From IMG/VR virus record IMGVR_UViG_2675903425_000020: DNA of 11,975 nucleotides; one strand, written 5' to 3'. Of the stretch, positions 7,250 through 11,975 are shown piece after piece. The DNA is from a virus (taxonomy: Duplodnaviria > Heunggongvirae > Uroviricota > Caudoviricetes). How positions within the stretch are numbered: position 1 is the first letter of the stretch; every line of letters begins with the position of its first letter. The notes below the pieces were generated by a model, which saw only the letters and a program-made list of their open reading frames with translations, searched no databases and was not told the DNA's origin. Both the position numbers and the translations under genes were made by a program.

Positions 7250-7613
7250 GTGGGGCGACTGGCCACTCAACATCCGCTGCTACTGTTGTATCAACACGAT
7301 TCAACAATACCCGATATGTCTTCCATGCAGCCAGTAACGATGCCTCTTCCTCCGTCGCAATATCCAAATCTACGGCATCCTGAAGTGGCGCAATATGCTC
7401 ACTGGCTACCTGCATCAGGCTGTTTTTTGTTTCTTCTGCCTCCCGTACCCGAAACAGTTTTTCTGCTTCTGCATCTTTCGCCCAGGATGTGCCGTTCCAC
7501 TTCTGACACTCTCCATCCGGCGACAACCAGGTAACATTTTCCGGTAACGGACCGAGTTCAGAAATAAATAACGCGTCGCCGGAAGCCACGTCATAAACCG
7601 TTTTACCCCGATG
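7245..7613 (-). CDS. tfa: Tail fiber assembly protein Tfa, C-terminal portion (copy A; 5' end lost in N-run)
   Basis: Minus-strand translation ...[122 protein letters not shown], close to the C-terminal two thirds of lambda Tfa as I recall it. Stop at 7245-7247. Confidence 0.75.
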
Positions 7614-7663
7614 NNNNNNNNNNNNNNNNNNNNNNNNNNNNNNNNNNNNNNNNNNNNNNNNNN
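7614..7663. other. Assembly gap (50 N) inside the tfa region
   Basis: Run of 50 N flanked on both sides by about 240 bp of near-identical (about 96 percent) tfa sequence. Confidence 0.95.
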
Positions 7664-8112
7664 GCATCCTGAAGTGGCGCAATATGCTCACTGGCTACCT
7701 GCATCAGGCTGTTTTTTGTTTCTTCCGCCTCCCGGATCCGGAACAGTTTTTCTGCTTCTGCATCTTTCACCCAGGCTGTGCCGTTCCACTTCTGAAACTC
7801 CCCTTCCGGCGATAACCAGGTAACATTTTCCGGTAATGAGCCGAGTTCAGAAATAAATAACGCGTCGCCGGAAGCCACGTCATAAACCGTTTTACCCCGA
7901 TGATCTTCAACGAGATGCCACGATGACTCATCACTGTTGAAAACAGCCACGAAGCCAGCCGGAATATCTGGCGGTGCAATATAGGTACTGTTTGCTGGCA
8001 GACCTGTATGAGGCGGAATATATGCGTCACCTTCACCAATAAATTCATTAGTTCCGGTCAGCAGATTATAAATTTTTATGGTCCGTGGTTGTTCACTCAT
8101 TCTGAATGCCAT
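7664..8112 (-). CDS. tfa: Tail fiber assembly protein Tfa, N-terminal portion (copy B; 3' end lost in N-run)
   Basis: Minus-strand ATG at 8110-8112 overlapping the stf stop (TAATG). Translation [149 protein letters not shown]... is nearly identical to the lambda Tfa N-terminus. Confidence 0.8.
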
Positions 8113-11027
8113 TATGCAAGCCTCACAATGTAGTTAAATGCGATGTTTTTGACAGTGTTTTCCGCGTTACCCGCAGCGTTAACGGTGATGGTGTGTCCAT
8201 GTGAGCCAATCGCAACAGAGTGCGTATGAGCACCAATACCGACAGTATGTGCGTGAGCACCTGCAGATGCAGCTGTGCCGCTGACACTATGAGTGTGCGC
8301 TCCTGCAGCACTTGTATTCACACTGGCCGCAGACACTACCTTATGTACTGACCCATTTTGTGACCACTGGCTGACTGCTGATGCGCCTGTGACACTATGA
8401 GTATGGTTTCCGGCACTTGCGGCTGTACCGCTCACACTGTGCGTGTGCGCCCCGGTGTTATTCGTGGATTTAGTGCCGTAATCAAACGACGATGTGGTTT
8501 TCGTCCCCAAATCCGTACTGGATGCGCTGGCGCTGTGGGTGTGCGATTTAATGCCGTCCTGTTCCTGAGACAATACGGCCCGACCACTGGCAGGTTTGCC
8601 CTTAATCGTCCAGCCACGCATATCAGGGATCACGCCTGACGGATAAGCGGCTGCAAGTTTCGGGTATGCAGATTTGTCAAAAGTCTGCCCCTGCATCAGG
8701 GCATAGCCAGACGGAACGGTATCTGATGGCCACGGGATTGGTGCGCCAGGCGGATAAAACTGCTCTGATGGCGTATAGAGTGAATAAACTGTACCGTCCG
8801 TTAACCCTTCCGGCTTATTAGCAGAATATGCTGGTGACGTATGAATCGTCACGCTGGCATTACTGGTATAATCCCATTGAATATTTACACCAGTCGCATA
8901 ATTTCCGATTGCAACGTAAATATCGTAAGTATCACCAGATGTATTGACCCAGGCAAAATTTGTAAACCCTGTCGATGTGCGCTGCCATAAAGCACCAGTA
9001 ATCCCCTTCGGATTACCATTACCTGCACGCAAAACAAGTTCAGATATACCTGCCTGTTGAGGTGACCCCACGTTAAATCCCGCGCCACCAATCAACGTAA
9101 TTGAAACAACAGAACTCGCCTGTGGCATGGTTACCGTTGCTAATTTGAACCAACCAGCACCACCGCTGAATGACATTGTTGTTGAGTTAAGCGTACCAAT
9201 ATCTTTCGGCGTCAGTGTTATATCCGATGAAAGCGCCTTACCATTCACCTTACGGGCAGAAGGTACCCGACCATTCGCATTATCATTAGCTGCTTTCACT
9301 GCTTTCGGTGTCGCGGCAAGCGTTTCAGATGCGCTGTTGGTTGCACTACTGAGCTGGACAATTCCTTTTTGTGCTGTCGTAGCGTCCTGAGCAGTATATT
9401 TCCCGTTAGCAAGGTCATAGGCTGCCTTTACCGACTTTGGCGTTGCCGCCAGCATTTCAGATGTGCTGTTGGTCGCGTTGCTAAGCTGAACTATCCCTTT
9501 CTGTGCTGTCGTTGCATCCTGTGCGGTGTATTTCCCGTTAGCCAGCTCATACGCGGCCTTAACGGCTTTTGGCGTTGCCGCCAGTGACTCGGAAGTGCTG
9601 TTAGTCGCACTGCTGAGCTGTACTATCCCCTTTTTCGTCGTGCTCGCATCCTCAAGCGCCACGGCGGATGCAATATCCTCTGCCCGTTTTGCCGCTGTCT
9701 CAGCGCGCGTTGCTGCAGATTCCGCCGTACTTTTGCTCTGAGCTGCTGCCGTCGCACTACCAGCTGCCTCTGTCGCCTTCGTGGATGCCGTCGTGGCGCT
9801 GCTCTTCGCTGCTGACGCTTGTCTGGTCGCCTCATCTTTTGAAGCAGACGCAGATGATGCCGATGACGCCGCCGAACTGGCTGACGATGCGGCAGCCGTT
9901 TTTGAGGATTCTGCGCTGGTTTCCGACGCTTTCGCGTTCGTTTCGGATGTCTTCGCTGCGGAAGCAGAACTCGCTGCTGCGCTGGCCTGTTCAGTGGCTT
10001 CGCCAGCCTTCGTTGTGGCTGTTGAAGCAGACGATGCGGCACTTTCTGCCGATTTTCCGGCGGCGGTGGCACTGGCTGAGGCCTGCCCGGCACTTGTTGA
10101 CGCGGCACTGGCAGATAATGCAGCCGCTGTTTTTGAGCCTGCTGCTGCGGAGGCACTCTGTTCTGCTGCCGTTTCAGAGGACTTAGCGTTTGTCTCAGAC
10201 GTTTTGGCCGCCTTCGCGGAATTGCCTGCCGCCGTTGCCGAGGAGGCTGCACTACTGGCGCTCGAGGCTGCGCTCGTTTCTGATGATTTTGCCGCCTCTT
10301 TTGAAGCCGACGCATCCCTGGCTGAGGAGGCAGCTTCTGACGCTTTCGTGGTCGCGGTGGATGCAGAAGTGGCGGCTGATTGTTGTGACACTGCCGCATT
10401 CGTTTCTGACGTTTTCGCCGCACCGGCACTGGTAGCCGCCGCGCTTTTTGAGGACTCTGCAGCGGCAGCACTTTTTGATGCTTCAGTAGCCTTTGTTGAT
10501 GCCGTTCCTGCGCTGGAAGACGCTGACTGAGCCGACGACGCGGCCTGTCCGGCTGACGTGCTGGCTGCGCGTGCTGAGTCCGCAGCATCAGTCGCATGGG
10601 TTGCCGCCTCACGGGCTGATGTGCTGGCATCGCTGGCTGACTTCTTCGCGGCTGCCGTGTTCTGTGCCACCGCGGACGCGTTACGCGCCACCTCTTCCAC
10701 CATCAGCTCAAAACGGCGCAGTGCCTCCGGACGGACATCATCCTCAGTCATGGCACCAAGAAAATCATTCAGCGTACCGGGTTGAGAATCTTCATACACG
10801 GTGATGGTCCCGGCATGTGACGGCGGGAANCCTTCCACCAACAGAATNACGCTGTACTGACCGTACTCAACGTCCATGCTGTAACGACCGGCTTCATCCG
10901 GATTTTCAGAGGCCACCGTGTTCACCACCACCGTGGCGCTGTTACGTCTGGCTTTCAGTTGAATGGTGCAGTTCTCTACCGGTTTTCCTGTGCCGTCTTT
11001 CAGTACACCTGAAATCTTTACTGCCAT
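8112..11027 (-). CDS. stf: Side tail fiber protein (lambda Stf-like)
   Basis: 973-codon ORF (track 8112-11033 with GTG; ATG at 11025-11027 gives [59 protein letters not shown]..., the lambda Stf N-terminus). Long Ala/Ser-rich central region, three tandem 42-aa tail fiber repeats, conserved [10 protein letters not shown]...[34 protein letters not shown] block and His-rich C-terminus ending [22 protein letters not shown]. Two ambiguous bases (10830, 10848) give two X residues. Confidence 0.9.
9270..9645 (-). repeat. Three tandem about 126-bp repeats encoding the phage tail fiber repeat motif within stf
   Basis: Three consecutive near-identical units encoding [41 protein letters not shown] (variants ELANG / DLANG / NDNANG); direct DNA repeats visible on the plus strand from about 9290 to 9645. 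Confidence 0.8.
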
Positions 11028-11038
11028 ATTCACCCCAC

Positions 11039-11065
11039 AAAAAAGCCCGCCTGAACCGGCGGGCT
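11039..11065 (-). terminator. Rho-independent terminator between lom and stf (minus strand)
   Basis: 8-bp GC-rich stem AGCCCGCC (11044-11051) / GGCGGGCT (11058-11065), 6-nt loop; on the minus strand it is followed by a TTTTT run (plus-strand AAAAA 11039-11043) immediately before the stf ribosome-binding region. Confidence 0.6.
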
Positions 11066-11092
11066 GTCATAACACTGTGTTACCTGGCTAAT

Positions 11093-11462
11093 CAGAACTT
11101 ATAACCGACACCCACGATGAAACCGTCAGTGCGCCAGTCGCCACTGCCGGAGCCTTCATAAGCAATATCAATGGCCACGGATTCGNNNNNNNNNNNNNNN
11201 NNNNNNNNNNNNNNNNNTAACGGGTAAGCTGGCGATTCTTGTCTCCTGCATAGCTGAATGACGTCACCAGCCCCAGCGTGTCCGTAAATTCATAACGGTA
11301 TTTCACGTTAATCCCGTTAAGATTATCGCTACCGGGAGCGCTCGTCCGGGCATGAAGATACCCCGCGCTCAGCGTGGCCTGCTGCTCAGACGCCCATGCA
11401 GGCGCGCCGGATACGGCCAGACAGATGGCTGCGGACAAAATGGCGGCATAAAGTTTACGCAT
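11093..11462 (-). CDS. lom: Lom-like outer membrane protein (Ail/Lom/PagC/OmpX family beta-barrel), interrupted by a 32-N assembly gap
   Basis: Minus-strand ATG at 11460-11462. N-terminus MRKLYAAILSAAICLAVSGAPAWASEQQATLSAGYLHARTSAPGSDNLNGINVKYRYEFTDTLGLVTSFSYAGDKNRQLTR has a signal peptide and is near-identical to lambda Lom. After the gap the frame reads ESVAIDIAYEGSGSGDWRTDGFIVGVGYKF* with the family-typical terminal aromatic; stop at 11093-11095. The track ORF 11088-11462 is frame-confused by the gap. Confidence 0.85.
11176..11207. other. Assembly gap (32 N) inside lom
   Basis: N-run; reading frame before and after is consistent with one lom gene only if the true missing length differs from 32. 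Confidence 0.95.
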
Positions 11463-11486
11463 AATTACCTCTCGCTTTTCTGCAAT

Positions 11487-11536
11487 NNNNNNNNNNNNNN
11501 NNNNNNNNNNNNNNNNNNNNNNNNNNNNNNNNNNNN
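11487..11536. other. Assembly gap (50 N) between lom and the upstream partial ORF
   Basis: Run of 50 N. Confidence 0.95.

Positions 11537-11975
<439 letters not shown>

Follow-up and report, generated by a model that had tools for sequence, protein, structure and literature searches.

Two diverged tfa segments around a scaffold gap are very probably alleles of two Escherichia coli O157:H7 prophages joined during assembly

The window analyzed here, an 11,975-nt stretch of the IMG/VR virus record IMGVR_UViG_2675903425_000020 (Caudoviricetes), encompasses a P2-like tail block followed by an acetyltransferase gene, two incomplete segments of a tail fibre assembly gene (tfa) located on either side of a run of exactly 50 N (7614-7663), a lambda-type side tail fibre gene (stf) and a lom gene. 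Further Ns are found at 10830 and 10848 (one each), 11186-11217 (32 N) and 11487-11536 (50 N), and because of these additional N-runs the window has to be regarded as a scaffolded draft of several contigs. We refer to positions 1-7613 as contig 1, to 7664-11185 as contig 2 and to the piece that begins at 11218 and ends at 11486 as contig 3; tfa-A and tfa-B denote the tfa genes to which the segments on the left and right of the 50-N run belong, and copies A and B the parts of them that align with each other. Comparison with the O157:H7 strain Sakai and other genomes yielded the following features.

1-476, no strand assigned: IS30 fragment lying within what is left of gpD in prophage Sp13, where contig 1 begins ('IS30 partial' in the Sakai annotation; locus L013, 16108-17221)
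901-6472, plus strand: P2-like tail block of Sp13 (Pfam Phage_sheath_1, Phage_tube, PhageMin_Tail and Phage_P2_GpU), with genes for the sheath (901-2085), the tube (2085-2597), a gpE-like protein (2652-3017) and gpU (5978-6472)
about 3132-5987, plus strand: broken tape-measure gene (Sakai ECs_2640, labelled a pseudogene)
6629-7201, plus strand: serine O-acetyltransferase (hexapeptide) cargo gene of Sp13, after the RefSeq product name in strain 493/89 and other genomes
7209-7238, plus strand: terminator-like hairpin (13-bp stem, then a T-run) between the convergent acetyltransferase and tfa genes
7245-7613, minus strand: 3' part of tfa-A, the C-terminal 122 codons and the stop codon, right end of contig 1 (from translation; identical to Sakai Sp13)
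7375-7613, minus strand: copy A, the Sp13 arm of an assembly bubble, made up of a 62-nt shared node (7375-7436), a variant core (7437-7551) and the first 62 nt (7552-7613) of an 85-nt shared node; exact match to the P2-like tfa of strain 493/89 (locus L001, 11382) and contained in the Sakai Sp13 match
7614-7663, no strand assigned: scaffold gap of 50 N, the flanks of which truly overlap by 239 nt as alternative alleles
7664-7902, minus strand: copy B, the Sp8 arm of the bubble, made up of the shared 62-mer (7664-7725), a variant core (7726-7840) and a shared stretch (7841-7902); exact match to Sakai Sp8 (locus L002, 5001)
7664-8112, minus strand: 5' part of tfa-B (ECs_1651), the N-terminal 149 codons, left end of contig 2 (from translation; 100% identical to Sakai Sp8)
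8112-11033, minus strand: lambda-type side tail fibre gene stf of Sp8 (ECs_1650; Pfam phage_tail_N, Phage_fiber_2, Collar and Phage_fiber, and the Sakai annotation)
11092-11462, minus strand: chimeric, shortened lom, with the 3' end from Sp8 (to 11185) and the 5' part from a different prophage
11218-11975, minus strand: segment of a third lambdoid prophage, one carrying espJ/tccP, with the 5' part of lom and the 3' end of J, in two contigs with the last 50-N gap between them (100% identical to FORC_044, 1995302-1996039)

The sequences flanking the 50-N run, 7375-7613 and 7664-7902, form a gapless alignment of 239 nt, collinear and on the same strand, with 13 mismatches (94.6% identity; BLAST E-value of 9e-108). 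This alignment bears out an earlier, sequence-only reading of the window, according to which two diverged, collinear, same-strand tfa copies flank the N-run; the divergence stands, but the count of about 10 differing positions given there has to be raised to 13. The 79 codons common to copies A and B differ in 6 residues, and the peptides quoted in that reading from both copies were reproduced on translation. The minus-strand frame of copy B leads to an ATG at 8112, that is, the tfa N-terminus, and the minus-strand frame of copy A leads to a stop codon at 7245, that is, the C-terminus, exactly as the two copies had been assigned. The end of copy A at 7613 and the start of copy B at 7664 both abut the N-run with nucleotide precision, as anticipated for an assembly artefact. 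A BLAST search for duplicated flanks at the 11186-11217 and 11487-11536 gaps produced none.

Contig 1 corresponds to nucleotides 2612582-2604970 of the Sakai chromosome (NC_002695.2), with one mismatch, at window position 6434, and no gap. The Sakai counterpart is annotated as 'prophage Sp13, P2-like phage', a remnant, and is identical to contig 1 throughout, including the IS30 fragment and the tape-measure pseudogene, this single SNP excepted. Position 6434 is an A in contig 1 and a C in Sakai and in every other fetched O157:H7 copy, so that the A is explained by a SNP private to this copy of the gpU gene or by a sequencing error. The IS30 insertion interrupting the gpD-like gene is present in Sakai Sp13 as well as in the sorbitol-fermenting O157 strain 493/89, and in genomes without the IS30 fragment the matches begin at window position 476. 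The tape-measure gene is split into at least two ORFs (708 aa and about 230 aa); in other strains it is intact (935 aa). Strain 493/89 was initially chosen as the closest relative, given that it covered more of the window than any other genome, but was rejected because contig 1 shows three mismatches and three gaps against it, as opposed to one SNP against Sakai-type O157:H7, and because its tfa, unlike that of Sakai-type O157:H7, is not truncated by IS629. In Sakai, tfa-A (ECs_5739) continues for 164 nt beyond the counterpart of window position 7613, at which point the gene is cut by the terminal repeat of IS629. Thus, the tfa fragment of Sakai Sp13 ends at IS629, whereas the corresponding fragment of the window stops inside an 85-nt stretch that is common to Sp13 and Sp8.

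The acetyltransferase gene preceding tfa-A in contig 1 gives a weak Pfam match to Hexapep, under the gathering score. Searching public assemblies for the exact 190-aa protein gave 7,515 blocks, and 776 of these include contigs of at least 0.2 Mb. The strong hairpin between this gene and tfa (one such site observed, as against 0.1 expected in shuffled sequences) is likely to be a terminator, judging from its stem and T-run, and, given the A-run 5' of it, might also work bidirectionally. In intact relatives of Sp13 (loci L001, 4480-17883, and L005), the sheath-to-gpU block with the acetyltransferase opposes and converges on a V-W-J-I-H-macro-tfa block, in which a macro-domain gene lies between tfa and the H-like fibre gene. 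In P2, the two corresponding tail blocks are co-directional.

Contig 2 corresponds to a different locus of the same chromosome. Window positions 7664-11185 match Sakai 1653016-1649495, annotated as 'prophage Sp8; lambda-like phage', and differ from it only at the two single Ns; the contig covers tfa (ECs_1651), the side tail fibre gene (ECs_1650) and the start of lom (ECs_1649). The stf gene is accordingly identical to that of Sakai except for the Ns at 10830 and 10848, both in the region encoding the stf N-terminus, where Sakai Sp8 has C and A, respectively; these Ns are likely to reflect collapsed reads from near-identical stf paralogues. The parental Sp8 block is found at 99.9% in hundreds of complete E. 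coli genomes. The tfa gene of Sakai Sp8 is intact, encodes 193 aa and has a catalase gene (ECs_1652) after it, whereas the last 133 nt of this gene with the stop codon, and the catalase neighbour, are missing from the window. The Sp13 and Sp8 loci lie 952 kb apart in Sakai. Because both window matches are located on the same Sakai strand and so far apart, the scaffold jumps over these 952 kb. One finished genome thus carries both alleles at separate loci, each of the two copies representing a distinct paralogue, as an artefact of assembly would have it.

Both parental proteins score far above the Caudo_TAP (PF02413) cut-off of 22.1 bits (136.7 bits for tfa-A and 152.6 bits for tfa-B, the latter with E=8e-45 over the full length). 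By these profile scores, both parental tfa genes are full members of the family, and the window holds one fragment of each. Within the lambda Tfa/P2 gpG family, the P2-like and the lambda-like prophage found here share a tfa N-terminal and middle module that is roughly 94-96% identical, and it is the homology of this module that confused the assembler. Tail-fibre assembly genes were reportedly described by Haggard-Ljungquist and co-workers in 1992 as being swapped between unrelated phages, and the module shared here is an instance of the classic tail-fibre mosaicism of these phages.

The right end of the window comes from yet another locus. The FORC_044 region identical to 11218-11975 adjoins tccP/espJ and lies about 1 Mb from the Sp8-type locus of the same strain, on the opposite strand; compared with Sp8, this part of the window is by our estimate only about 97.6% identical outside the Ns. 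The 32-N gap at 11186-11217 takes the place of 261 nt in Sp8, and the 50-N gap at 11487-11536 represents 30 nt. The segment 11186-11975 thus represents a second cross-prophage join in the scaffold, and the lom gene model is about 230 nt too short. Judging from these sequence matches, three prophages are chained within 12 kb of the scaffold.

To characterize the boundaries of the tfa copies, the parental loci were aligned over their full length, a k-mer graph was built from Sakai Sp13 and Sp8, and unitigs were derived at 14 k-mer lengths from 31 to 127. The parental tfa genes are identical over two stretches, one of 62 nt (7375-7436, with the alleles differing at 7374 and 7437 on either side) and one of 85 nt (7552-7636), and all 13 differences between the copies fall between these two stretches. 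Past the 85-nt stretch, Sp13-type variants lie at 7637, 7643, 7694, 7731 and 7769 in the coordinates of allele A. Each copy therefore consists of 62 shared, 115 variant and again 62 shared nucleotides: copy A ends 62 nt past its last private variant (7551 + 62 = 7613), and the start of copy B precedes its first private variant by the same distance (7726 - 62 = 7664). Among the values of k tested, the simulated unitigs coincide with 7375-7613 and 7664-7902 at k=63 only. In the simulation, lower values of k give shorter arms, the 62-nt node is lost at k = 64-77, and the two loci are fully separate at k >= 87. The ends of contig 3 obey the same k-1=62 rule with respect to the differences between Sp8 and the third prophage (11280 - 62 = 11218; 11424 + 62 = 11486). 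Because only k=63 reproduces the boundaries, the two 'copies' can be identified as the two arms of a de Bruijn bubble with k-1 = 62-nt overlaps. The boundaries of the copies are thus set by the k-mer length and not by biology, which again points to an artefact.

This geometry is difficult to reconcile with the alternative of a genuine tandem duplication put forward in the sequence-only reading, in which part of one tfa gene (about 240-290 bp) would have been repeated. The copies are indeed on the same strand, collinear and separated only by the gap, as a tandem duplication would require. However, their boundaries are the gap edges and extensions of k-1=62 nt past the outermost variants, and the place where a duplication junction would lie is occupied by Ns only, with no sequenced junction. 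Furthermore, each copy is identical to the allele of a different prophage; the copies are 5.4% diverged from each other, whereas their flanks match Sakai, a genome lacking the duplication, at 99.99-100%; a 289-nt repeat unit would shift the reading frame; and no tfa duplicated in this form was found in any of the 5,426 complete E. coli genomes. With k-mer-defined boundaries and two prophage alleles, a tandem duplication is effectively excluded, and we consider it extremely unlikely. Exceedingly improbable, too, is a mixed culture or contamination, in which the alleles of two strains at one tfa locus would have been sampled. Allelic heterogeneity of this kind also gives a two-armed bubble, but each flank is specific to one arm, and both alleles, with their own flanks (acetyltransferase and stf, respectively), coexist in single finished genomes such as Sakai; because single finished genomes carry both alleles with different flanks, a strain mixture is not needed.

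The most probable explanation by far is that the copies are the tfa middle segments of two O157:H7 prophages joined by the assembler, that is, an assembly and scaffolding artefact rather than a duplication. The origin of the two sides and the k=63 arrangement are both established directly, and from these we infer the exact reasoning of the scaffolder as follows. In the k=63 graph, two left flanks, Sp13 on the acetyltransferase side and Sp8 on the catalase side, would enter the shared 62-mer, from which two 239-nt arms would lead to the 85-nt shared node and on to two right flanks, a 164-nt Sp13 stub running into the roughly 20-copy IS629 and the Sp8 path into stf. The assembler would have kept arm A with the Sp13 left flank as contig 1, and arm B with the 85-nt node and the Sp8 right flank as contig 2. 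With only the 164-nt stub and the multicopy IS629 ahead of it, contig 1 would have had no long unique successor competing with contig 2; both arms, moreover, feed the same shared node, and for these reasons the scaffolder would have set contig 1 before contig 2 with N filler, even though the ends overlap by 239 nt. The assembly itself joins arm B, and not arm A, gaplessly to the Sp8 N-terminus and stf in contig 2, so that the Sp8 N-terminus is already accounted for.

One hallmark of false duplications is a gap with near-identical copies on its two sides (Ko et al. 2022, Genome Biol 23:205, PMC9516828), and the prophages of O157 are near-identical to each other across many genes (PMC2669165). 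As in the vertebrate false duplications, near-identical, same-strand copies that should overlap are placed around an N gap, giving rise to a spurious split or duplicated gene model (PMC9516828). The vertebrate cases involve two haplotypes, whereas the copies described here are paralogues from two prophages in a haploid bacterial genome; a further consequence here is that distant loci, 952 kb apart in Sakai coordinates, are falsely joined.

The remaining alternative is a real homologous recombination between the Sp13 and Sp8 tfa genes, with a crossover in the 85-nt identical stretch, occurring either by inversion, where the two loci are inverted, or by integration of an excised Sp13 circle into Sp8. 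In such a recombinant, the acetyltransferase side would continue into stf, and arm B would reside in the reciprocal product (catalase - tfa - IS629). Both routes have some basis: Sp13 has been reported to excise, circularise and replicate (PMC2669165), and in the finished genome of CDC#03-98 the loci are in opposite orientation, so that an inversion would be viable there. In Sakai, by contrast, the loci are direct repeats, and the observed junction would require a deletion of 952 kb. A deletion of this size is judged to be lethal, given the essential genes of E. coli. The same assembly, moreover, ties arm B and not arm A to the Sp8 N-terminus in contig 2.

None of the 5,426 complete E. coli genomes covers at least 80% of the window in one place. 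We also searched with a collapsed synthetic query consisting of the acetyltransferase 3' end, the tfa-A C-terminus with arm A, the shared node, the tfa-B N-terminus and stf; this hybrid was likewise found in none of the 5,426 complete genomes, the best full-length match being 88.8% identical and belonging to an unrelated P2-like prophage. The parental junction (acetyltransferase-tfaA'-IS629), in contrast, is present in 264 of them. A scan of IMG/VR with the shared 62-mer retrieved 105 loci, none of which has two copies or an N-run, and in the GTDB species-representative genomes the 62-mer had 4 matches, all unrelated.

Gap-free hybrid contigs with the order acetyltransferase - tfa C-terminus A - tfa N-terminus B - stf - lom are nevertheless found in many independent drafts, including two in IMG/VR (L019 and L088). 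The exact 192-aa hybrid tfa protein is encoded on 140 contigs (141 index blocks), which could represent a real recombinant lineage, and a reciprocal hybrid protein is encoded on 3 contigs. Drafts with the hybrid tfa (Sp8 N-terminus and Sp13 C-terminus) include L124-L132, and most of the hybrid contigs switch to the variants of another paralogue at window-equivalent positions 10887-11152. The longest contig is 10-20 kb in 115 of the 141 hybrid blocks and 65 kb overall. Contigs of 0.2 Mb or more, present in 776 of the 7,515 acetyltransferase blocks, are absent from the hybrid blocks; were the hybrid a real genotype, about 15 of the 141 blocks would be expected to have such long contigs. The Sp8 side of every hybrid contig examined stops within the repeated stf-lom region, and the two long hybrid contigs gain their length solely from the Sp13 side, where they run into pgsA and uvrC. 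With a hybrid frequency of about 1.9% in drafts (141/7,515 blocks), about 5 hybrids would be expected among the 264 finished genomes, as against none observed (rough P about 0.007). Finally, recombination should yield the hybrid and its reciprocal in comparable numbers, whereas the counts are grossly unequal, 140 as against 3 contigs, the latter of at most 4.7 kb; an alternative 177-aa gene call of the reciprocal hybrid was absent.

With no hybrid in finished genomes, short contigs only and such a skew between the two products, recombination at tfa, the other alternative raised in the sequence-only reading, is disfavoured, and we regard it as unlikely; quite unlikely is the specific scenario in which Sp13 truly recombined with Sp8 within the 85-nt stretch in the isolate studied here as well as in a minority of other O157:H7 isolates. 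If true, it would yield a functional, full-length hybrid tfa and a P2-type tail block fused to a lambda-type side-fibre module. The gap-free hybrid contigs are probably products of the same mis-join, made by other assemblers via the 85-nt exact repeat.

The artefact explanation agrees with what the sequence-only reading favoured, namely that a scaffolder joined contigs ending in similar tfa genes of two prophages; the Sp13 and Sp8 identities in Sakai, the k=63 unitigs and the absence of the arrangement from the finished genomes all support it. Its warning that the linkage of the P2-like to the lambda-like block was unproven was well placed, considering that the two loci are 952 kb apart in Sakai and that the join occurs in none of the 5,426 finished genomes: there is no support for a physical link between the P2-like tail block and lom-stf-tfa. 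Both loci are long-known prophages of Sakai, their tfa products are ordinary Caudo_TAP chaperones, and the window holds no new biological feature.

At first sight, the window would be read as containing a chimeric prophage, combining a P2-like contractile tail with a lambda-like lom-stf-tfa block, and a split or duplicated tfa, neither of which is supported. The same false join probably accounts for the gap-free hybrid seen in roughly 2% of the public drafts that carry the acetyltransferase gene, and the hybrid 'tail fiber assembly protein' has entered the protein databases (e.g., EEC7638276.1 and UniParc UPI00028E253F); GCA_025251185.1 is one of the drafts encoding EEC7638276.1. Studies of prophage mosaicism and tail-fibre diversity in O157:H7 that rely on short-read drafts can accordingly be misled by such joins.
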